DNA of 64,000 bases from an uncultured bacterium (lineage in GTDB: Bacteria; Hydrothermota; Tepidihabitantia; B3-TA06; CAYQJV01), in assembly GCA_964417925.1 (NCBI GenBank), contig CAYQJV010000002.1, positions 20,952 to 84,951 on the forward strand. Reading direction: 5' to 3'. A model generated the notes under the pieces. That model made no database searches. It was given only the letters and a program-made list of their open reading frames with translations, and had not been told where the DNA came from. Positions 9,475-64,000 of this stretch are shown piece by piece (within the stretch, counting starts at the first letter, position 1; every line of letters begins with the position of its first letter). Both the position numbers and the translations under genes were made by a program.

Positions 9475-11244
9475 TCACATACTTGAGAGAATTTTAAATG
9501 TTTTTATTTTTTGCCTTTGTTTTATTTTTACAAAATATACTCCAGGAGATACAGAAATTTTCTTTTCTATAACATCTGATGTTACATATCCGTTAAATAT
9601 ATGAAGTACTTTTCTCCCACAGGGGTCATAAATTGCTATGTCTACCCGATGAGGAGAGTTAAAATTAAACTTGATTTTAAGCGTGTTCCCAAGATATGAT
9701 ATGCACATAATTTTAGAGTTTTGTTCTTTTTCTGTAATTCCAAGTACACCTTTTGGAATTGCAATTACCGGGATAAAAGCAGAAAGAGTAATCTCATCGC
9801 TTGTTTCTAATTTTTTTCCGTTTAATCCTTCAAAAAACTCATAGTTTCCTTCTGCTTTGGTCTCATAATAAAAATTTACTGTAGTATCTTTATTACTCTG
9901 CAATAGATATATCTTATAAGTTTGAAGGTCCTTTCCACTTATATCAGGTATGTCTTTGCAAAAACACTCAGCGGAAAGGGGGTCAGAAGTCTTTACCCAG
10001 TATCCATCCTCTTTATCTCCTCTTATGGTTGATGGACAGGCTGTAAGTTCAAACACTTTCAGATCTTCATATTTCAACACTGAATCAAGATGGGTGTTGT
10101 AAAGATACTTTACTAAACCTTTTAATGGATATGGATAGTTTTCTAAATCAAATTCATGCTCTCCTTTATATTCAAAGGATGATTCACCTGGATGAGCATT
10201 TTCCCATGCAATAAATTCCTCATAAATCTCATCAGGGGTTGACCATTTAACATCTTTTCCTATGAAGTATTTATTCATCCATTCAACAAATCTTTTAAAT
10301 TCGTCTCTCCTTTGGGAAAGTTCATGGTCATAGGGGTCAGGAGGATTCAAATTATAAAAATGCAGGGTTAAAGCAATGTCCCATACTTTTTCTATTCCTT
10401 TTGATTCAAGATACCATTTATTTAATAAAAGCATTATTAAATCCTTCTGTCTTGCAGGAACGGTTCCATCCTGAGGTGCTCCATAATGGGTTCCAGTACC
10501 CCCTATAACCTCAGCAGTAGGCGTTCTTACATAGATTCTTTGGTCTGGGTCTTCCCATAGCATACCTGTAGTATCTGGTCTAAAAGGATTCCATACACTG
10601 TGTTGAAAATACTCATAGAAGCACTCTTCGGTAAAGTTTGTTTCTATTTTAAATCCATGCATCATTGAGTTACCTTTGTCGTCTTTTAAGCTTCCCTCCA
10701 TAAATTTCATTCTCTGCACAGGTGCACATGCATAAGCTCCAGCATATTTCTTTACTATTTTCTCAACAGAATCTTTATCAATCCCCAAGGAAATCATTAT
10801 TAAACTATCAACATAACGTATATGGTCGTTTATCCCTTTTACAAGTTTTGCTGAATCTTGAATGTAGTTGTTGTATTCAAAATCCGAAAGACATAGTTCT
10901 GGAAGTATCACAACATCGGAAGGAGCCCATCGTCCATCCGGAAGTCTTGCCCATTGGTGAGCATGTATACCAAAGGTATGACCGCTTTGGGCTGCCTTTT
11001 TAATATAATATCTTACAGTTTCTGCTTCAGGAAAAGAAAGGAGTGCAGAATCTGCAAAATCTCCTTGGAACTCTATACATAGTTTTGGTCTTTTTTCATA
11101 AGGAAGGCTGTCAAGATAGCTTATAAGCCATTTAAAGTTCCTCACCCTTTCTTTAAATCCTCCCCAGTCTTTTGGAATACCTGATGGTTCATTGTGAACT
11201 ATTATATGAAAGTGAACGATTGATGAAAAAAGAAATAAAAGCAT
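9475..11244 (-). CDS. Secreted protein: putative NodB/CE4-like barrel plus T9SS-like C-terminal domain
   Basis: HNE and GIHAH motifs; C-terminal IAIYDPCGRKV...SPGVYFVKI...KI. Confidence 0.55.
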   Translation of the reverse strand: MLLFLFSSIVHFHIIVHNEPSGIPKDWGGFKERVRNFKWLISYLDSLPYEKRPKLCIEFQGDFADSALLSFPEAETVRYYIKKAAQSGHTFGIHAHQWARLPDGRWAPSDVVILPELCLSDFEYNNYIQDSAKLVKGINDHIRYVDSLIMISLGIDKDSVEKIVKKYAGAYACAPVQRMKFMEGSLKDDKGNSMMHGFKIETNFTEECFYEYFQHSVWNPFRPDTTGMLWEDPDQRIYVRTPTAEVIGGTGTHYGAPQDGTVPARQKDLIMLLLNKWYLESKGIEKVWDIALTLHFYNLNPPDPYDHELSQRRDEFKRFVEWMNKYFIGKDVKWSTPDEIYEEFIAWENAHPGESSFEYKGEHEFDLENYPYPLKGLVKYLYNTHLDSVLKYEDLKVFELTACPSTIRGDKEDGYWVKTSDPLSAECFCKDIPDISGKDLQTYKIYLLQSNKDTTVNFYYETKAEGNYEFFEGLNGKKLETSDEITLSAFIPVIAIPKGVLGITEKEQNSKIMCISYLGNTLKIKFNFNSPHRVDIAIYDPCGRKVLHIFNGYVTSDVIEKKISVSPGVYFVKIKQRQKIKTFKILSSM

Positions 11245-17022: not shown

Positions 17023-17477
17023 GAAGGATAGCAATTGGGGCAGACCATAGAGGTTATGAGTTAAAGGAAAAGCTTAAAAGATATCTTGAAGAAAAAGGCT
17101 ATGAGGTAGAAGACTTGGGAACTTATTCAAAAGCTTCGTGTGACTATCCAGACTTTGCAATTCCTGTGGCAGAAATTGTAGCGAAGGGAGAAGTAGATAG
17201 AGGAATTCTTATATGCTATACAGGCATAGGGATGTCAATTGCTGCCAATAAAGTGAAAGGAGTTAGAGCTTCTTTATGCTTTATTCCTGAGCTTGCAGAG
17301 CTTACAAGAAAACATAATGATTCAAATGTTTTGGTTCTTGGGTCTATGTACATCACTTTTGAGTTAGCCAAAAAAATAGTTGATAAATGGTTTTCTACGG
17401 ATTTTGAAGGAGGTAGACACCAAAGAAGGATTGATAAGATTAAAGAGTATGAAAATTCTGCCTTTAGCAGCGGATAG
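17001..17477 (+). CDS. rpiB: Ribose-5-phosphate isomerase B
   Basis: [39 protein letters not shown]. Confidence 0.95.
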
Positions 17478-18285
17478 TTTAGGAGTAAGAAGTATGGCAA
17501 CCTTTGTGGAGACAGATGATATTACAATTATCGTAGATCCAGGCGTATCCTTGGGACCTATAAGATATGAACTTCCTCCTCATCCAGTGGAGATAGAAAG
17601 GATGCAATGTGCAAGAAAAGATATAATAAACTTTATCAAAAAAGCCAAGGTAGTAATAATTACCCATTATCACCTTGATCACTACATGCCTGAATATTCT
17701 TTCCTTTTTAAAGGCAAAGAAGTCTTTTTAAAAAATCCTTTTGAAGAGATGAACTACAATCAAAGGGAAAGGGGTAAGGAGGTTATAGAAATTTTAAAAA
17801 AGCACAGGATAAGGTATGAATTCGCAGATGGTATGAGAATAAGATATGCAGATACCTTAATAGAGTTTTCTCCTCCATTTCCTCATGGAACAAAAGCACA
17901 GGGAAGTGTATTGTCAATCTATATAAAAGAAAAAATAGAAAGTTTTTTGTACACTTCGGATGTTGTTGGACCTCAAGAAAGAGAAGTCTTAGAGTTTATT
18001 GGAGAAAGACGTCCCACATATCTTTATATTGATGGTCCCAATCTTCCTTTTTGCAATACCTACTCGCTTGAGATCGCTCTAAAAAATCTCTTTGAGGCAA
18101 GTATATATACACAACAGATGATTTTAGATCACCATCCTATTAGAGATAAAGAATATTATTCAAAGCTTAATCCAATTTTTGAGACCCAAAAAACACTCAC
18201 AGTTGCAGAGTTTCTCCATACATCTCCTATGCCCCTTGAAGCAAGAAGGAAGGAACTCTTTTTAAAATATGTGGATAAAAACTGA
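17449..18285 (+). CDS. Metallo-beta-lactamase-fold hydrolase (UPF0282-like)
   Basis: [18 protein letters not shown] start, ITHYHLDH, TSDV, DHH. ATG at 17449 preferred over the track's 17380. Confidence 0.85.
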   Translation: MKILPLAADSLGVRSMATFVETDDITIIVDPGVSLGPIRYELPPHPVEIERMQCARKDIINFIKKAKVVIITHYHLDHYMPEYSFLFKGKEVFLKNPFEEMNYNQRERGKEVIEILKKHRIRYEFADGMRIRYADTLIEFSPPFPHGTKAQGSVLSIYIKEKIESFLYTSDVVGPQEREVLEFIGERRPTYLYIDGPNLPFCNTYSLEIALKNLFEASIYTQQMILDHHPIRDKEYYSKLNPIFETQKTLTVAEFLHTSPMPLEARRKELFLKYVDKN

Positions 18286-18494
18286 AATCGCTTTCTTAAA
18301 GCTTTCTAAGAAGCAAAATATACAATACATAAATTTCCCCACTGTGTGGATAACTTTTTCAACGTTGTGGATAACTCTATAGGTTACGTAAATACGTGTC
18401 ATGAATGAAAGTTCAAAAGTTAGAAAAAGCGAGTTATCCACAGATATTAGAAAAGTGGATAACTTTCTTTCGGCAGTGGAAAGTTTGTGGAAAG
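18270..18494. promoter_or_regulatory. DnaA-box cluster, candidate replication origin
   Basis: Perfect TTATCCACA/TGTGGATAA at 18270, 18345, 18366 and 18434; near-matches at 18454, 18475 and 18486. Confidence 0.75.
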
Positions 18495-19411
18495 AGATAG
18501 GTAAGAGAATAGTAAATCAAAGAGATGTAATAGAGGGAATTCTGGTTTCTTTGTTTGCAGATGGGCATTCTCTTGTGATAGGTGTTCCAGGACTTGCGAA
18601 GACTTTGATTGTGAATACCATTGCAGAGGTTTTGGATCTTCGTTTTCAGAGGATTCAGTTCACTCCTGATCTTATGCCTTCAGACATTACCGGAACTGAG
18701 ATTCTTGAAGAGGATAAAGTTACTGGAAAGAGACGGATGCGTTTTGTAAAAGGTCCTATTTTTGCCAATATTGTACTTGCAGATGAGATTAACAGAGCTC
18801 CTCCAAAAACCCAGGCTGCGTTATTACAGGCAATGCAGGAGAGAAAGGTGACTGTAGGAGGAGTTACCTATGAACTTGATCCTCCCTTTATTGTACTTGC
18901 GACTCAGAATCCTATAGAACAGGAGGGAACGTATCCTCTTCCAGAGGCAGAACTTGATAGATTTATGTTTGCAATAAACATAGGTTATCCATCCTTTGAA
19001 GATGAAAAAAAAATTGTGGAAACCACCACATCAGGATATGAACCAAAATTAAAAAAAGTAATGAAAAAGGAAGAGGTAGTGGAATATCAGAGACTTATAA
19101 GAAGAGTTCCTGTATCAGAAGAAGTTATTTCTTATGCAGTCTCAATAGTTCATGCAACAAGACCTGAAAATAGTAATTTTAAATTTGTTAAAGAATGGGT
19201 AAAATGGGGAGCTGGTCCTCGGGCTTCTCAATATTTGATTCTTGGGGCAAAAGTTAGTGCATTGCTTGAAGGGAAAATAGTACCTGAAAAAAAGGATATA
19301 AAAAGAATTGCTCCCCAGGTTCTCAGACATAGAATAATTTTAAATTTTGTTGCAGAAGCTGAAGGAATAACCTCGGATGAGGTAATAAAAAATATTCTGG
19401 AAAAATTTTAA
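18401..19411 (+). CDS. MoxR-family AAA+ ATPase
   Basis: GVPGLAKT, RIQFTPDLMPSDITG, LADEINRAPPKTQAALL, ATQNPIEQEGTYPLPEAELDRF. Confidence 0.95.
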   Translation: MNESSKVRKSELSTDIRKVDNFLSAVESLWKEIGKRIVNQRDVIEGILVSLFADGHSLVIGVPGLAKTLIVNTIAEVLDLRFQRIQFTPDLMPSDITGTEILEEDKVTGKRRMRFVKGPIFANIVLADEINRAPPKTQAALLQAMQERKVTVGGVTYELDPPFIVLATQNPIEQEGTYPLPEAELDRFMFAINIGYPSFEDEKKIVETTTSGYEPKLKKVMKKEEVVEYQRLIRRVPVSEEVISYAVSIVHATRPENSNFKFVKEWVKWGAGPRASQYLILGAKVSALLEGKIVPEKKDIKRIAPQVLRHRIILNFVAEAEGITSDEVIKNILEKF

Positions 19412-33857: not shown

Positions 33858-35528
33858 ATGGAAGAAAAAGTGGTAAATAAAGTGAGCGAAGACGATCTTG
33901 AAAAGTATATAGAGGAGACCTTCAAGACCTTTTCTCCAGGTGAAATAGTGAAAGGGAAGATAGTGCGAAGGGTTGGTAACAATGTGCTGGTAGATATAGG
34001 ATGGAAAGCAGAAGGAATAATACCTGTGGATGAATTTTCCGATGAATCTGAGATAGAAGAGGGAAAAGAAATAATGGTTTATTTAGAATCAGAGGAAAGT
34101 AAGGAAGGCGTACCGGTTATTTCAAAAAAGAAAGCAGATTTTCAACTTGCGTGGTCTACTATAAAAGAGAAACTGGAGACCGGTGAAGGGTGTAAAGCAA
34201 GAGTAAAAAAGAGGGTAAAAGGTGGATTGATGGTTGAAGTGTTTGGATTAGATGCTTTTCTTCCGGGTTCTCAAGTGGATATAAAACCGGTTACCAACTT
34301 TGATGAATATGTGGGTAAGGAGATAGAGGTTAAGATAATAAAAGTAAACTGGAGTAAACGTAATATTGTAGTCTCCAGAAGAATGCTTCTTGAAGAAGAA
34401 TTGGAGAAGAAAAAGAGAGAATTTTTTGCTAAGGCCAAGGAAGGAGACATTGTTGAAGGTACGGTAAAAAATATTGTGAACTTTGGGGCATTTATTGATC
34501 TTGGCGGTGTAGATGCTTTGCTTCATATAACTGACATATCTTGGAAGAAGATATATCATCCTGCTGAAGTTTTAAAGGTAGGTGACAGAATAAAGGTAAA
34601 GATTCTTTCAATAAACAAGGAGACCGGAAGAATTACAGTAGGATTAAAACAACTTGAAGCTCATCCATGGGAAGACATAGAAAAGAAGTATCCAATAGGT
34701 AGCAGGGTTAAAGGAAGAGTCACCGGATTCACAGACAATGGAGCTTTTGTTGAACTTGAAAAGGGTGTGGAGGGTATGATTCATATAAATGAAATGTCAT
34801 GGACAAAGAATATTACGCATCCTGCACAGGTTCTTAGAATAGGTGATGTAGTGGAAACCGTAGTTCTTAGTGTGGATAAAGATGAAAGGAAAATTTCTCT
34901 TGGATTGAAACAAACCATGCCAGATCCATGGGCAGTGGTGGATGAGAAGTACAAAGTTAATCAAATTGTAAAAGGAGTAGTCACAGAACTACGTAGTTTT
35001 GGTGCTTTTGTTGAGCTTGAGGATGGAATAGAGGGATTGATAAAGAATCAGGATCTTTCATGGACAAAGAAGATAAAACATCCGAGAGAGGTTCTAAGAA
35101 AAGGACAGACTGTAGAGGCTATGATACTTGCAATTGACAAAACAAATAGGAGAATATCGCTTTCCCTTAAACATACCCAAGAGGATCCTTTCTATAAATG
35201 GACTAAATCGCACAAACCAGGGGATGCGGTTAAAGGAAGGATAATAGATATGCCATCAAGCGGATTAGTAGTGGAATTGGAAAATGAACTTGAAGGATTT
35301 GTACCCGTAAGAGAATTAAAAATAAAAGGAAAGATAAAAGACCACTACAGACTCGGAGAGACGATTGATCTTGTGGTGAAAAAAATAGATGAACGAGTGA
35401 GAAGAATAATACTTTCTGAAAAGGGTTATGAGAAAATGAAGGAGGAGAGGGAAAGGGAAATCTTTATGGTTGAAAAAGCACCTGAAAAATTTACAGTGAA
35501 GGATATTCTGGAAAAGAAAAAAAAGTGA
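33858..35528 (+). CDS. rpsA: 30S ribosomal protein S1
   Basis: Six S1 repeats (AFLPGSQ, FGAFIDLGGVDALLH, GAFVELE); cmk-plsC-rpsA synteny. Confidence 0.96.
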   Translation: MEEKVVNKVSEDDLEKYIEETFKTFSPGEIVKGKIVRRVGNNVLVDIGWKAEGIIPVDEFSDESEIEEGKEIMVYLESEESKEGVPVISKKKADFQLAWSTIKEKLETGEGCKARVKKRVKGGLMVEVFGLDAFLPGSQVDIKPVTNFDEYVGKEIEVKIIKVNWSKRNIVVSRRMLLEEELEKKKREFFAKAKEGDIVEGTVKNIVNFGAFIDLGGVDALLHITDISWKKIYHPAEVLKVGDRIKVKILSINKETGRITVGLKQLEAHPWEDIEKKYPIGSRVKGRVTGFTDNGAFVELEKGVEGMIHINEMSWTKNITHPAQVLRIGDVVETVVLSVDKDERKISLGLKQTMPDPWAVVDEKYKVNQIVKGVVTELRSFGAFVELEDGIEGLIKNQDLSWTKKIKHPREVLRKGQTVEAMILAIDKTNRRISLSLKHTQEDPFYKWTKSHKPGDAVKGRIIDMPSSGLVVELENELEGFVPVRELKIKGKIKDHYRLGETIDLVVKKIDERVRRIILSEKGYEKMKEEREREIFMVEKAPEKFTVKDILEKKKK

Positions 35529-37715: not shown

Positions 37716-38237
37716 TTATATTTTTACTATCTTTGCCTTCCACTGCGTTGTGTCCAAGATCGCAACAGTAGGAGGATTATTATCTTTTGGTAAAGATGGG
37801 CTTCCTGGATTTATAAAAGTAACATTGTGTTTTTCTTCTATTAGAGGGATGTGAGAATGCCCACATATTACAACATCTGGTTTAATGCTTTTTACAATAC
37901 TTTCAAGTTCTTTTTCTTTATGACCGTGCATTGCAAGGATGCTTTTTCCATTGATATACAAAAACAATTTTTCACCGAGTAATGGAAAACTGAGTACCGT
38001 TTCATCTACTTCACTATCACAGTTTCCTTTTATCCACATGATTCTATAAGGTGAATTATTCAGAGATTCTACCAGTTTGGCAGGAGCATACCCTTGAGGA
38101 ATCGGATTTCTGGGACCATGATTTAAGATATCCCCTGCGTGAATGATAAAAGAAATTTTTTCATCTTTAAAGACCTTTAATGCTTTTTCCCATCCGGGGA
38201 ATGCTCCATGAGTATCGCTAATTATTCCTATTTTCAT
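37716..38237 (-). CDS. YfcE-like metallophosphodiesterase
   Basis: SDTHG, HAGD, GNCD, HGH, GHSH, NPGS. Confidence 0.92.
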   Translation of the reverse strand: MKIGIISDTHGAFPGWEKALKVFKDEKISFIIHAGDILNHGPRNPIPQGYAPAKLVESLNNSPYRIMWIKGNCDSEVDETVLSFPLLGEKLFLYINGKSILAMHGHKEKELESIVKSIKPDVVICGHSHIPLIEEKHNVTFINPGSPSLPKDNNPPTVAILDTTQWKAKIVKI

Positions 38238-38243
38238 AATGTT

Positions 38244-38272
38244 ATTTTATACATGATTCAAAAAGATGTCAA
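38244..38272 (-). promoter_or_regulatory. Sigma70 promoter TTGACA-17-TAAAAT, leaderless start
   Basis: ATG 6 nt downstream; MITE end 5 bp upstream of the -35. Confidence 0.8.
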
Positions 38273-38277
38273 CTTAT

Positions 38278-38541
38278 TGTAGAATTCCATAACATTTTGG
38301 CCACGAGGGGTTATTCTTTACCCATCCGTTCAAAAATCTATCAAACTCCTTCCCATTATCGGTCTGTCCCACTCCTTATCTTAAAAGGCACAACTTGCAT
38401 AAACTTCTCCATAAAATCTCTTGTACTTTATCTGCTCCTCTTTGTTTTTGGCGTCCGAGATAAAAAAACCAGCCCTTTGCCTTTGTCCATAAATTTACCT
38501 TTTTTCAAGATACCAATCCAATACCTTTTTGAAATTCTTCA
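38278..38541. mobile_element. IS481-like MITE copy 1 (264 bp)
   Basis: Near-identical to 41694..41956 and 50532..50978; imperfect TIRs TGTAGAATTCCA / TGAAGAATTTCA; minus strand encodes an rve-core remnant PFKIRS.QTDNGKEF. Confidence 0.85.
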
Positions 38542-38990
38542 GTAATTCCAAAACTCTTCGGTAAAGTGCTTAAAAAGGAGACAACAAGGGAAAAAGGATG
38601 GATATGGGATGAGGAGTCATTTTTCAGGGAAGTGGAGGAGAAAATCAAAGATGAGGAGATAAAGAATGTGATAAGAAGGTTGTATAAATTTGCCAAAAAA
38701 GGAAAGCTCTGATCCTCCCTTTCCTTTGCAACCATCGGTAGATGCAAGATTTACCTTCTATGTAAAAAGAGACTTCTGCCTTTTCAGAATAATGGTCTAT
38801 GGAAGCATTTATTTTTATGCACTGGGATTTCAGGCCGGAAAACTTAGAAAAATGCTTAATGAAATAGGTTTTGAAACTGAGGAAAAATGGAACGAAAAAG
38901 AAATCGGTCTTGACATATTTAAAGGGAAAAGTGTCTCTTGATGATTTCATAAATGTGGAGAAAAGATATAAGGAGGAGATGAGCATCTCT
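38542..38990 (+). pseudogene. 5'-truncated, frameshifted gene fragment
   Basis: Frame opens exactly at the MITE end (VIPKLFG...WDEESFFREVEEK...) and continues in another frame after the A-run near 38700; no start codon. Confidence 0.55.
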
Positions 38991-39040
38991 TGAAGGCATC
39001 CTATAGGGTTTCTTAAAGGCTTCGATGGATTTTAAAACTG

Positions 39041-39599
39041 AGACTGTTCGAAAAATCCTTTTATCCGATATTTTTCTCTCATAAAACCCAACTCACAACC
39101 CTCCAGCAACAGAAGATAGTAGAAACCACACAGAAGAAAAATAAAGAGAATATGCAAATTATACAATACAAAACCCCAATGCCATCTTCTCTGCTATCCC
39201 CTTATCTTCATAACCTCTATACTATCATAACACTTATCCGCCACCAAAACACCACCTATATTAACCTTCTTTATAAATTTTAAGGCATCCAATAACAACT
39301 TTACTTCACTTGCATACGGACCTCCAGAAGAAGCATCAACAATAACTCTTCTACCATCCGAAGTAAAAATTATAACAACACCCACCTTCCCCTGAGATTT
39401 TATGTTTCTTATCACCATGCTCCTGAAAAACTTTATTGGGTATATGTCATTATAATCTATATCATAATATATTGAGAGGAATGGGAGAGATGAAAATACT
39501 CATGAAGCTTTTCTAAAACTTCCCGATAGGACAATCCCCTTAAGACTTTATAAATATGCAAAAATTCCCCCAATGCAACTCTTATTTTTCGAACAGTCT
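39041..39599. mobile_element. IS5/IS4-superfamily non-autonomous remnant (559 bp)
   Basis: Perfect 16-bp TIR AGACTGTTCGAAAAAT; minus-strand transposase fragments including LVADKCYDS (DDE-type ADKGYDS motif); related to 53712..54035. Confidence 0.8.
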
Positions 39600-39611
39600 T
39601 CCTGCATTTTC

Positions 39612-39639
39612 TTGACACCACCGAGTTATAATGTATAAT
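39612..39639 (+). promoter_or_regulatory. Sigma70 promoter TTGACA-16-TATAAT
   Basis: Perfect hexamers upstream of V-ATPase subunit K. Confidence 0.8.
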
Positions 39640-39685
39640 AAAGAACTCCATGACTGATCAAAATAAATGTAAAAAGGAGGTGTAA

Positions 39686-61395: not shown

Positions 61396-64000
61396 ATGCT
61401 TTATCTTTTACTCCTTACCCAGTTTTATTTTGGTAAAAACAAAGTCCAATACAAAGAGTTTTCATTCTTAACTTACGAAACCGAAAATTTTGATATATAT
61501 GTAGAAGAAGGGGCTGAAGTACTTGCCTATTTTGCAGAAAAAGTTTTAGAAGAAGCTTTAGAAGAGTATACTCAAGACTTTGGTATAGGAATAGAAGAGA
61601 AAATACCTGTAATAATTTACAGTTCCCCTTCTGATTTTTCACAGACCAACATAATTCTTGAACCAATAGAAGAATCCATAGGAGGCTTTACAGAACTTTT
61701 TAAAAATAGAGTGGTGGTACCTTTCACCGGTTCCTATAAAGAGTTCAAACATGTACTAAGACATGAACTTACTCATGTGTTCCAGTTTGAACTCTTTTTT
61801 TCACTCTCTCTATCCAATCTATTTTCACTTATTCCAGGATTCGTTCCTCCTCTATGGTTTCTTGAAGGAATGGCAGAGTATTGCTCAGAACATGGAGGAG
61901 AAGATGCAGAACTTTTTATGCGAGATTTAGTAATAAATGGTGAAATAGTTCCTCTTTCTGAATTAACTCCTGAATATGGTTTTATCCTTTATAAGGAAGG
62001 TGAGTCTTTTTTCTTGTATCTTGAGAATGAATACGGAAGAAGGAAGGTATTTGAATTTATAAATGCAGTAAAATTCAAAAAAAGTATTGAAGAAGCATCA
62101 AAATATGTGTTCAAGAAAAAATTTTCAGAGATTGAAAAAGATTGGATGGATTATCTTAAAGTAAAATACTTTCCATCTATAACCTTAAAGAAAAAATTTA
62201 AGGCAAACATACTAAAACTTACCAATCATAAAAAGACCGGATCAATTTTCAATAAATCGGTCTCCCTATCTCCCACAGGAACAAAAATAGCCTTTATCTC
62301 TGATAGAGAAGATTACACCGATATATTTGTAGCCTCTGCATTTGATGGAAAAATCTTAAAAAAACTCATTACTACAGGAAGATCTGCATCGTTTGAACAT
62401 CTTCCTGTATTGAAAAGAGAACTTGCTTGGTCAGAGGACGAAAGGTATTTATATGTAATTGCTTTTAGTCAGGGTAAGCCAGTACTATATGTGATAAACT
62501 ACGAAACAGCAAAAATAGAGCATAAATTGGTACTCCCCTTAGATGATGCATTTTCACCTTCAGTATATAAAGAAAAAATTGTCTTCATAGGGTTAAAAGA
62601 CGGATATGCAGATATTTATCAATATGACCTCTCAACCAAAACACTAAAAAGACTCACCTGGGATCCTTTTGAAGAAAAATCTCCTTTCATATCAGATAAA
62701 GGAATATTTTTTGTATCGGATAGACCTTTAAAAAATGAATGGTCACCTGGAATATATGGCCTTTTTTTGATGAAAAACAACGGAGAGGTAAAATGTTTAT
62801 TACATGGGCTATCAACTCTGGACAATCCTGTAATATTTAACGAAATGGTATATTTCATTGGTCCAGGTAAAAAACTTTACGGATTTTCCTTAAAGGATTC
62901 TTCAACCTACGAAATCTTTTCCTCTCTTGCAACCGTGGAGGAGATATCAATATCAAACCAAGGAAAAATGGCAATTACCTATTTCAGCGGATTGGGATGG
63001 GATATAGGAATCTTTAAAAGAAAAGTAGATAAACTTCAGGGCAAAAAAGTAGTTTTGCAAAAAGATACTGCACAGGTATTTACATTTAATACTGTAGACG
63101 AAAACGATTTTTCCCTATATACACCTAAGTTTTCTCCAGATTACGTATACGGTACAGGAAGTTACTCCACTGATTTTGGATTCTCTGGATGGCTCTATAT
63201 GGGAATAAGTGATATGCTCGGGAATCATAGATTTTACATAGACCTCTATCTTTCTCCTGACATCTCATTTTCAAATATAGTTGTGGAATACTGGTATCTT
63301 CCTCATAGATGGGATATAGGAATAGGAGCTTTTCAATTGGTGTATTTCTATTATCTTTTACCCAACTGGGATATAATCCTACAACGTTTGAGAGGTGGAG
63401 CACTATTTTTTTCCTATCCTTTTAGCAAGTTTGCAAGAGTTGAAGCAGAAATCGATGGAACCTATGTAGATGAATTTCTATACATCAATACAGAACATGG
63501 TTTTTACTACGCAGACCATAAAGAATATCCCTTATTTATCTCAGGAACAGCTGCTGTGTTTGATAATATTCTTTGGAAGTACTACACTCCTATGCGAGGC
63601 ACAAGATGGAGAATTGCAGTCTATAAAAGTTTTGCAAGTCCTATAGAATTTACCACATTTTATGTAGATTTTAGACATTATCTTAAATTAACTCCTCGCT
63701 CCTGCCTTGCAATAAGAGTATACGGAGGAGAAAGCATAGATAAAGATGCAGAATACTTTACCTTAGGAGGAACAGGTTCTGTACGAGGTTACAATGATTA
63801 TGAGGAAATCGGACATAAAATTGTAATGATGAATTGGGAGTTAAGGGTACCCTTTATAGATTATTTAAAAATGGCATTCCCTTTACCTTTAACTATAAAA
63901 AATCTCAGAGGCGTATTATTCATCGATGCAGGAATCTGTTGGAATGACACTATTTCATATTATGATCCTGCTACTCATACTCTGGGAGATATAAAAATAG
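61396..64000 (+). CDS. Peptidase-MA / PD40 propeller / Omp85-like barrel protein, 3'-truncated by window edge (absent from the ORF track)
   Basis: ATG 61396: MLYLLLLTQFYFGKNKVQY; RHELTH and WFLEGMAEY; TolB-like SLSPTG.KIAFISDR; C-terminal VRGY and LRGVLFIDAG. No in-frame stop in the stretches read. Confidence 0.85.
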   Translation, partial: MLYLLLLTQFYFGKNKVQYKEFSFLTYETENFDIYVEEGAEVLAYFAEKVLEEALEEYTQDFGIGIEEKIPVIIYSSPSDFSQTNIILEPIEESIGGFTELFKNRVVVPFTGSYKEFKHVLRHELTHVFQFELFFSLSLSNLFSLIPGFVPPLWFLEGMAEYCSEHGGEDAELFMRDLVINGEIVPLSELTPEYGFILYKEGESFFLYLENEYGRRKVFEFINAVKFKKSIEEASKYVFKKKFSEIEKDWMDYLKVKYFPSITLKKKFKANILKLTNHKKTGSIFNKSVSLSPTGTKIAFISDREDYTDIFVASAFDGKILKKLITTGRSASFEHLPVLKRELAWSEDERYLYVIAFSQGKPVLYVINYETAKIEHKLVLPLDDAFSPSVYKEKIVFIGLKDGYADIYQYDLSTKTLKRLTWDPFEEKSPFISDKGIFFVSDRPLKNEWSPGIYGLFLMKNNGEVKCLLHGLSTLDNPVIFNEMVYFIGPGKKLYGFSLKDSSTYEIFSSLATVEEISISNQGKMAITYFSGLGWDIGIFKRKVDKLQGKKVVLQKDTAQVFTFNTVDENDFSLYTPKFSPDYVYGTGSYSTDFGFSGWLYMGISDMLGNHRFYIDLYLSPDISFSNIVVEYWYLPHRWDIGIGAFQLVYFYYLLPNWDIILQRLRGGALFFSYPFSKFARVEAEIDGTYVDEFLYINTEHGFYYADHKEYPLFISGTAAVFDNILWKYYTPMRGTRWRIAVYKSFASPIEFTTFYVDFRHYLKLTPRSCLAIRVYGGESIDKDAEYFTLGGTGSVRGYNDYEEIGHKIVMMNWELRVPFIDYLKMAFPLPLTIKNLRGVLFIDAGICWNDTISYYDPATHTLGDIKI

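Follow-up and report, generated by a model that had tools for sequence, protein, structure and literature searches.

A conserved cluster of DnaA boxes at the start of moxR in an uncultured bacterium: a candidate DnaA operator

What is the function of four perfect DnaA boxes that lie close together around the start of a gene for an AAA+ ATPase? The question is raised by a 64 kb chromosomal fragment (the window, 34.4% GC) of an uncultured bacterium, in which a cluster of DnaA boxes is located between the gene of a metallo-β-lactamase (MBL)-fold hydrolase and moxR. An initial annotation of the fragment took the cluster for a true replication origin (oriC) remote from dnaA or, failing that, for a DnaA titration site of the datA/DARS kind. 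The analysis described here points to a different role. We judge it probable, if not by much, that the cluster is a high-affinity DnaA operator at the promoter and first codons of moxR and is not a replication origin.

A perfect DnaA box is defined here as TTATCCACA. The cluster contains the four perfect boxes within 173 bp that had been reported originally, and its elements and the two genes that flank it are as follows.

17449-18285, plus strand: MBL-fold hydrolase gene (Pfam Lactamase_B); the gene call in identical Logan contigs starts at the same position
18270-18278, minus strand: DnaA box 1, perfect TTATCCACA, confined to the window and sister species
18279-18344, no strand: spacer between boxes 1 and 2, a moderately AT-rich tract with the conserved motif ATACAAyACATAAA and with CCCC at 18337-18340, 4 nt before box 2
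18345-18353, minus strand: DnaA box 2, perfect TTATCCACA, the first element of the triad described below
18366-18374, minus strand: DnaA box 3, perfect TTATCCACA, next in the triad and spaced 21 bp from box 2
18401-19411, plus strand: moxR, an AAA+ ATPase gene of the AAA_3 family (Pfam AAA_3, 2.6e-62)
18434-18442, plus strand: DnaA box 4, perfect TTATCCACA, inverted, last in the triad and spaced 68 bp from box 3; it forms codons 12-14 of moxR (L-S-T)
18454-18462, minus strand: a box with one mismatch, TTATCCACT, at the V-D-N codons of moxR; it differs in the sister species

Only two further perfect boxes are found in the window, at 34871 on the minus strand and at 38030 on the plus strand. The resulting total of six is to be compared with 0.61 expected from dinucleotide shuffles, none of 100 of which reached six, and with 0.81 per window expected from composition. 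For any given box, three further boxes would fall within 173 bp by chance with a probability of about 2e-9. The original estimate of less than one perfect box per window, and with it the conclusion that the cluster is not accidental, is therefore sound, even though it had been based on about 32% GC and not on the measured value. On the evidence of sequence it holds that the cluster is non-random and conserved in evolution, and that it is a predicted DnaA-binding site of some function. Three near-matches had been listed in addition. The one at 18454 has a single mismatch, whereas those at 18486 and 18475 have two and three, respectively, and none of them is kept in the sister species. The placement of boxes in the 5' end of moxR is correct for box 4 and for the site at 18454, which is probably lineage-specific and incidental. 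The full list of distances between successive sites is 75, 21, 68, 20, 21 and 11 bp, of which only 21, 21 and 11 bp had been quoted.

The sister species is represented by loci L003-L006 and L134, which belong to one species with a DNA identity of 99.7-99.8%. It has in common with the window a block of genes for an aminotransferase, RpiB, the MBL-fold hydrolase and MoxR, and its proteins are 58% (MBL) and 72% (MoxR) identical to those of the window. All four perfect boxes are present in the sister species in the same places and in the same orientation, and boxes 1 and 4 are 164 bp apart in each of the two. Since the DNA around them has diverged, the boxes appear as islands of perfect identity. 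Box 1 is contained, as had been noted at the outset, in the last codons of the MBL gene (V-D-K-N-stop), where it encodes V-D-K. This C-terminal tail is exclusive to the window and sister species and is absent in L087, and no equivalent of box 1 was found in L130, L132, L133, L135, L007 or L012. Box 1 lies in a tail that only two species possess, and the L-S-T of box 4 stands out in an otherwise variable lead-in of MoxR; it is the DNA sites that constrain the proteins and not the reverse. The initial annotation would have been undermined if the boxes were not conserved in relatives. They are conserved, all four in the sister species and boxes 2-4 in several further lineages.

Boxes 2-4 constitute a triad with a fixed architecture: box 2 is followed after 21 bp by box 3 in the same orientation and after another 68-70 bp by the inverted box 4. 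The triad was looked for in 1.78 Mb of fetched non-viral loci, with up to two mismatches allowed per box and four in total. It was found only at moxR, always in the orientation of moxR, and in eight independent lineages; block shuffles give 0.05 chance matches in the same amount of DNA. The lineages are the window, the sister species (L003/L134), L130, L132, L133 and L135, all of a WOR-3-like clade, and two metagenome-assembled genomes (MAGs), one from the Acidobacteriota (L007) and one from the Zixibacteriota (L012). The L130/L131, L132, L133 and L135/L136 loci were fetched because their MoxR homologues share L-S-T at residues 12-14. Their genomes have a GC content of 41-53%, and rpiB is separated from moxR by a gap of about 165-200 bp. 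The gap and the beginning of the gene contain TGTGAATAA, 21 bp, xGTGGAAAA, 68 bp and TTATCCACA, the last box again coinciding with codons 12-14 of moxR. L007 and L012 come from an unbiased source, a MoxR-similarity scan of GTDB genomes, which returned at least 80 loci from many phyla and also supplied the control loci. Among the distant moxR loci in the matches listed, these two of 80 carry the triad, and most have no boxes near moxR. In L007, a genome of 70% GC, the order TGTGGATAA, 21 bp, CGTGGACAA, 69 bp, TTATGCACA is found directly upstream of moxR. In L012 the triad is likewise upstream of moxR and oriented with it, and its spacings are 20 and 70 bp.

The position of the triad relative to the gene is equally constant. 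Throughout the WOR-3-like clade, the moxR start codon lies 26-27 nt past box 3, and box 4 comprises codons 12-14. Comparison of the homologues shows that the N-terminus of MoxR consists of a variable lead-in of 11 residues followed by L-S-T, which occupies residues 12-14 in P0122, P0192, P0198, P0216 and P0221. This fixed geometry shows a constraint that acts on the coding sequence at the DNA level. The variation that is seen among the boxes follows the known tolerance of DnaA boxes, TT(A/T/G)T(C/T/G)CAC(A/N). An alignment of seven lineages contains a C-rich cluster just before box 2 in most of them and an extended form of box 4, GTTATCCACAG, in four (the window, L003, L007 and L012). Conserved boxes at a fixed position at the start of one gene across related genomes are what is expected of a DnaA-regulated promoter.

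In the MoxR tree, the window, L003, L087, L130, L132, L133 and L135 form one clade with a bootstrap of 90/100. Triad bearers are present in both subclades of these seven members, which makes the triad ancestral to the WOR-3-like clade with its rpiB-(MBL)-moxR synteny. Its absence from L087, where the MBL gene and moxR overlap without a gap, is due to loss. The same absence could have meant that a 180-bp box module was inserted between the MBL gene and moxR, an idea that is ruled out by the triad in the subclade of L130, L132, L133 and L135. Horizontal transfer of moxR together with its upstream boxes was also considered and rejected. The triad-bearing MoxRs are scattered in the tree, and those of the other phyla fall outside the WOR-3-like clade, which makes a joint transfer unlikely.

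How might the triad act on moxR? Two putative promoter elements are interleaved with its boxes.

18357-18362, plus strand: weak -35-like hexamer TTTCAA, in the 12-nt gap between boxes 2 and 3
18380-18385, plus strand: -10-like hexamer TAGGTT, separated from box 3 by 5 nt and from the moxR ATG by 15 nt

The spacer between the two hexamers is 17 nt long and contains box 3. The sequence AACTTTTyCAA between boxes 2 and 3 is kept across the WOR-3-like clade. TAAG(TT) or TAGGTT is found at the same offset after box 3 in five of the seven lineages in the alignment, the Acidobacteriota locus among them; L135 has TAAACC there. Because the boxes are interleaved with the hexamers, DnaA occupancy would hinder RNA polymerase, as at other DnaA-repressed promoters. 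DnaA bound to boxes 2 and 3 would cover the weak -35 element and the promoter spacer. In this model, transcription would begin near 18390, about 10 nt ahead of the ATG. DnaA bound to the inverted box 4, about 45-50 nt past the presumed transcription start, could make a second contact or serve as a roadblock. Transcription of moxR would then track the level or activity of DnaA in the cell, most likely via repression. In the window and sister species, the boxes of the triad all have the perfect consensus, and a fourth perfect box has been gained in the tail of the upstream MBL gene. A site with four consensus boxes is expected to hold several DnaA molecules and to be saturated at low DnaA, and it may thus acquire an additional role in DnaA titration or as a sink. 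The link to one gene, the fixed orientation, the fixed position relative to the start codon, the promoter-like hexamers and the persistence of the triad in GC-rich genomes that lack an AT-rich unwinding region at the site (L132, L135 and L007) together suggest a cis-regulatory operator, as opposed to an element of replication or of DnaA management alone.

A bolder proposal, which we consider decidedly unlikely, is that the triad and moxR form an ancient functional unit of the WOR-3-like bacteria, Zixibacteriota and Acidobacteriota. MoxR, as an AAA+ remodelling ATPase, would then be a conserved part of the DnaA regulon and of the replication-initiation cycle, where it might, for instance, remodel or recycle DnaA or an origin-bound complex, with the boxes providing feedback. 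In a weaker variant of this proposal, the operator of the window lineage has been upgraded to four perfect boxes and would be on its way to becoming a titration site or an auxiliary origin.

Several points weigh against an operator. The moxR promoter and transcription start are predictions, and a generic sigma-70 scan did not call the weak -35-like and -10-like hexamers. DnaA of Escherichia coli prefers pairs of boxes that are 2-3 bp apart (PMC11317965), compared to 12 bp here. Four perfect boxes exceed the need of a simple operator. We know of no biological reason for MoxR to be controlled by DnaA. In L007 and L012, the triad is situated about 105-400 bp upstream of the moxR start codon, and a promoter inside it would require long 5' leaders. 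Moreover, the closer relatives L087, L089, L090 and L031 have no triad, as is the case for all but two of the 80 distant loci listed. Absence from most moxR loci implies that the control, if it exists, is dispensable.

The most obvious alternative is an active oriC remote from dnaA, at which DnaA on the four boxes opens the AT-rich spacer between boxes 1 and 2 and loads the helicase. Origins remote from dnaA do occur, E. coli and Caulobacter being examples. With four perfect boxes in 173 bp, the cluster attains the top DnaA-box score under the criteria of Ori-Finder 2022 and has the three or more boxes expected of an oriC, and it is kept in the sister species. The order of elements on the minus strand (box, box, G-cluster, AT-rich DNA) is that of the Bacillus subtilis unwinding module, and the L007 triad comes directly after gidA-gidB-parA-parB, which are classic origin-proximal genes. 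We nevertheless consider this alternative very unlikely, on the grounds of tests that rest on 64 kb and ±10 kb contexts and not on whole genomes and are strong, but not final. No dnaA, dnaN, rpmH, gidA, parAB or hemE was detected in the 64-kb window by Pfam scans of all open reading frames (ORFs) of at least 120 amino acids, and a regular expression for the DnaA signature found no match in the six-frame translations. The statement that dnaA and dnaN are missing from the window was therefore accurate. Among the triad loci, gidAB-parAB is found only at the distant L007.

The L007 module (9790-10003 of the Acidobacteriota MAG contig DATIQI010000271.1) lies between parB and a moxR-DUF58-batA operon, and its only AT-rich island is 29 bp long and positioned between boxes 3 and 4. 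An origin-related role of this particular site, given its adjacency to gidA-gidB-parA-parB, has a small probability. The notion that moxR is generally an origin-proximal gene was discarded, as neither gidAB, parAB nor a DnaA signature was found near any fetched moxR locus apart from L007.

An origin at 18.3 kb should also be marked by an opposite gene and skew bias on its left side, and no such switch of polarity is seen. Plus-strand genes have a higher GC skew at third codon positions (GC3 skew) than minus-strand genes to either side of the cluster: 0.21 vs -0.05 on the left (Mann-Whitney p=0.015) and 0.32 vs 0.13 on the right (p=0.04). At these positions, G is in excess on the plus strand by +0.13 to the left of the cluster and by +0.09 to its right, i.e. 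with the same sign, and the plus strand carries 56% of the coding bases to the left of the cluster and 72% to the right. Eleven of the 17 genes to the left are on the plus strand, or 14 of 20 if the 2-kb leftward extension L122 with three more plus-strand genes is included. The genes for tRNA-Pro, tRNA-Met and a sigma-70 factor are among them and would be head-on to a fork leaving the cluster. The genes adjoining the site are arranged alike in the window and in the sister species: those on the left point into it, and those on the right point against it. Minus-strand genes of the sister species have a high skew (0.19-0.48) on both sides and plus-strand genes a low one, moxR being the exception. 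This suggests that there is no switch, although the evidence is weaker because moxR is the one plus-strand gene of the right flank. L130 clearly has no switch: plus-strand genes have a negative skew and minus-strand genes a mostly positive one on both sides of the site, and the block is on the opposite replication strand to that of the window. GC skew across L007 and L135 was too weak or noisy to inform. The coding strands of the window are strongly enriched in G and A (purine loading), so that raw GC skew simply tracks the gene strand, and skew-based origin calls in this lineage need to be corrected for gene orientation.

A distinctive unwinding element is missing as well. The AT-rich tract of the initial annotation exists, with 76% AT at 18285-18335, but is not exceptional for the genome, as about 5-10% of segments of the same size in the 64 kb, and about 5% of those of 25 and 40 bp, are at least as AT-rich. 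The best 40-bp segment of the spacer has 80% AT, a value equalled or exceeded by 4.8% of the segments in the 64 kb, and several other intergenic gaps have a higher AT content than the gap between the MBL gene and moxR (67% AT). The accompanying GGGG motif is read as CCCC on the plus strand. In the GC-rich relatives L132 and L135 (52-53% GC) and L007, the triad has no AT-rich stretch where unwinding would be expected and consists of one perfect and two degenerate boxes each, while the sister lineage L087 lacks the module altogether. The basal unwinding system is characterized by at least three DnaA-trios (3'-NAN-5', preferably GAT) that start no more than 16 bp from a box and follow a short GC cluster (PMC8287927). 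A manual check found no run of at least three trios within 16 nt of any of the four boxes and no trio register shared with the sister species; no such runs follow box 1 or box 4. On the minus strand after box 2 (CAGTGGGG AAATTTATGTATTG...), the first run of at least three NTN starts 25 nt past the box, and its register differs from that in the sister species. With no polarity switch, indicator genes, distinctive unwinding element or DnaA-trio array, the identification of the cluster as a true oriC is thus not supported.

Three other explanations remain to be weighed. That the cluster manages DnaA itself, either as a titration sink or as a datA-like or DARS-like element altering the nucleotide state of DnaA, and has no primary role at moxR, is possible but on balance unlikely. 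An operator would not need as many as four consensus high-affinity boxes, and their overlap with coding sequence suggests that the DNA site itself has been selected. Conserved non-origin clusters with up to three perfect TTATCCACA and no obvious target, such as that at gcp-ydiF, are known in B. subtilis (PMC2533591), and experimental support for chromosomal DnaA titration has been reported in E. coli (PMC12371093). Titration, which the initial annotation had kept as its second choice, can accordingly be retained as a possible function, but it leaves the strict link to moxR, the single orientation and the fixed start-codon position in eight lineages unexplained, and most of the relatives, with their one perfect box, would make a poor sink. 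The comparison with datA and DARS is also at odds with the structure of the site. Both datA and DARS2 need IHF sites, and the compact three-box core of DARS differs from the 21 and 68-70 bp spacing found here. The IHF consensus WATCAANNNNTTR has eight matches in the window, as many as expected by chance, but none between 13831 and 22906 and hence none in the cluster.

A silent or auxiliary origin-like element comparable to oriCII of Pseudomonas, which can bind DnaA and might replicate on a plasmid but is not the chromosomal origin and acts mainly on the adjacent gene, would account for boxes that overlap gene ends, for the conservation of the cluster and for the lack of a polarity switch. The absence of a distinctive unwinding element and of a DnaA-trio array makes it most improbable, and in practice it overlaps with the operator explanation. 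It is just as improbable that some protein different from DnaA, such as a lineage-specific regulator of moxR, binds the 9-mers and that they resemble DnaA boxes by coincidence. Binding of DnaA to the boxes is a prediction, and the 21-bp spacing is not that preferred by E. coli DnaA dimers (PMC11317965). However, the universal high-affinity DnaA box is present in the cluster in four exact copies, the degeneracy is confined to positions that DnaA tolerates, and the extended form of box 4, which resembles R1 and R4, occurs in lineages from three phyla. Another factor is unlikely because its exact site would have to be shared across these three phyla. A DnaA operator at moxR therefore remains the preferred explanation.

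The window sequence is present in hydrothermal-vent metagenomes, and the closest named relatives, as judged by its proteins, belong to candidate division WOR-3. Its housekeeping genes include polA, rpsA, uvrA, tyrS, rplI, a sigma-70 gene, the tmRNA gene and four tRNA genes, and several of its proteins bear type IX secretion sorting domains (Pfam). Upstream of the MBL gene are rpiB and a gene for a class IV aminotransferase. The moxR gene of the window stands alone, with convergent genes downstream, whereas most distant orthologues belong to the usual moxR-DUF58-vWA (Bat) operon, as seen in a comparison with L007, L012 and 30 of the fetched loci. The downstream Bat partners were lost from the moxR locus, or were never present, in the whole triad-bearing WOR-3-like clade.

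Beyond the sister species, the nearest homologues of the MBL protein have an identity of 40-45% and are overwhelmingly archaeal (Archaeoglobi, Bathyarchaeia, Aenigmatarchaeota and Korarchaeia), with a few from thermophilic candidate bacterial phyla. This suggests that the gene was transferred between domains in hydrothermal habitats. Its place between rpiB and moxR in one subclade seems to be due to an insertion. A scan of metagenome contigs by MBL alignment yielded the known sister contig and distant, mostly archaeal-type homologues without boxes, and nothing else.

Two parts of the window are poor in ORFs. About 2.6 kb at its right end (61400-64000) contain no ORF of 100 or more amino acids, and the small ORFs are junk-like. 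No Pfam match, no Rfam match at E<=0.1 and no repeats were found in this part, and an ORF that crosses the window end is possible. Such a stretch is unusual for an otherwise compact genome. The other, of about 1.4 kb (38238-39685), extends from a metallophosphoesterase gene to the gene for the ATP-synthase c subunit and has short ORFs without a Pfam match. The lone perfect DnaA box at 38030 is just inside the gene that adjoins it. An insertion sequence remnant at 39.2-39.7 kb was a guess that Pfam did not support.

Much denser box arrays exist elsewhere. When IMG/VR was scanned for the triad pattern, the only matches were unrelated elements in which 10-14 perfect boxes are densely arrayed. In seven IMG/VR contigs classed as viral (L123-L129), 10-14 perfect TTATCCACA are packed into 150-500 bp with 11- and 21-bp spacing and form two opposed blocks. 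Such arrays may serve mobile elements as DnaA-dependent origins or as sinks for DnaA.

The moxR cluster has some practical bearing on genome annotation. Dense and conserved perfect DnaA boxes with the top box score of an Ori-Finder-type analysis need not be an origin, and sites of this kind would be wrongly annotated as oriC in drafts of genomes from uncultured phyla. DnaA regulons have been described in only a few model organisms, and they vary from one to another. If the operator is real, few DnaA targets beyond the origin region would match its breadth of conservation, which extends across three phyla, and it would link replication status to a chaperone ATPase of the MoxR family, whose cellular role is poorly understood. 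Among the papers searched, none links DnaA boxes with MoxR.

Compared with known systems, the cluster has something in common with oriC, in that tandem consensus boxes of the same orientation are followed on the minus strand by a G-cluster and AT-rich DNA, as in the basal unwinding system (PMC8287927, PMC6669920). It differs from that system in the 12 bp between the boxes, as opposed to 3 bp or less, in having no three or more trios within 16 nt and in its unexceptional AT tract, and from origins in general in having neither a strand-polarity switch nor indicator genes. Of the defining features of oriC that were tested, the site shows only the number of boxes. The datA, DARS1 and DARS2 elements of E. 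coli are also non-origin clusters in the range of three to five boxes, but they act on DnaA itself. The IHF (and Fis) sites needed by datA and DARS2 have no counterpart in the form of an IHF site at moxR, the spacing and orientation of the boxes differ, and datA and DARS are not tied to one neighbouring gene across phyla as the moxR triad is.

The closest cases are the non-origin clusters and DnaA-regulated promoters of B. subtilis (PMC2533591) and oriCII of Pseudomonas (PMC13438810). The DnaA regulon of E. coli is compact (PMC11317965). In B. subtilis, non-origin clusters regulate neighbouring genes such as sda, ywlC and yydA (Ishikawa et al. 2007, PMC2533591). Like the moxR cluster, they contain several high-affinity boxes away from an unwinding site, are conserved in related species and lie by or over promoters. 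DnaA is a transcription factor at these clusters and is also titrated by them, a behaviour that is predicted for moxR from sequence alone. Unlike them, the moxR cluster has a fixed triad (21 + 68-70 bp, the last box inverted), is conserved across phyla and not at the level of a genus, is associated with moxR, and has one or two of its boxes in coding sequence. The oriCII of Pseudomonas aeruginosa is a conserved second cluster located over the 5' part of gidA. It can replicate on a plasmid, is not required for replication of the chromosome and regulates gidAB-parAB (PMC13438810). Both it and the moxR site are conserved clusters over the 5' end of a gene and not the chromosomal origin, the control of the adjacent gene being predicted in the case of moxR. 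However, oriCII supports plasmid replication and is origin-proximal, whereas the moxR site has no origin-proximal genes nearby and no evident unwinding element. DnaA activates transcription at oriCII, whereas the positions of the boxes at moxR suggest repression. The moxR cluster thus belongs to a known kind, that of non-origin DnaA-box clusters and DnaA-regulated promoters; what is new is the deep conservation of its architecture and its previously unreported target, moxR.

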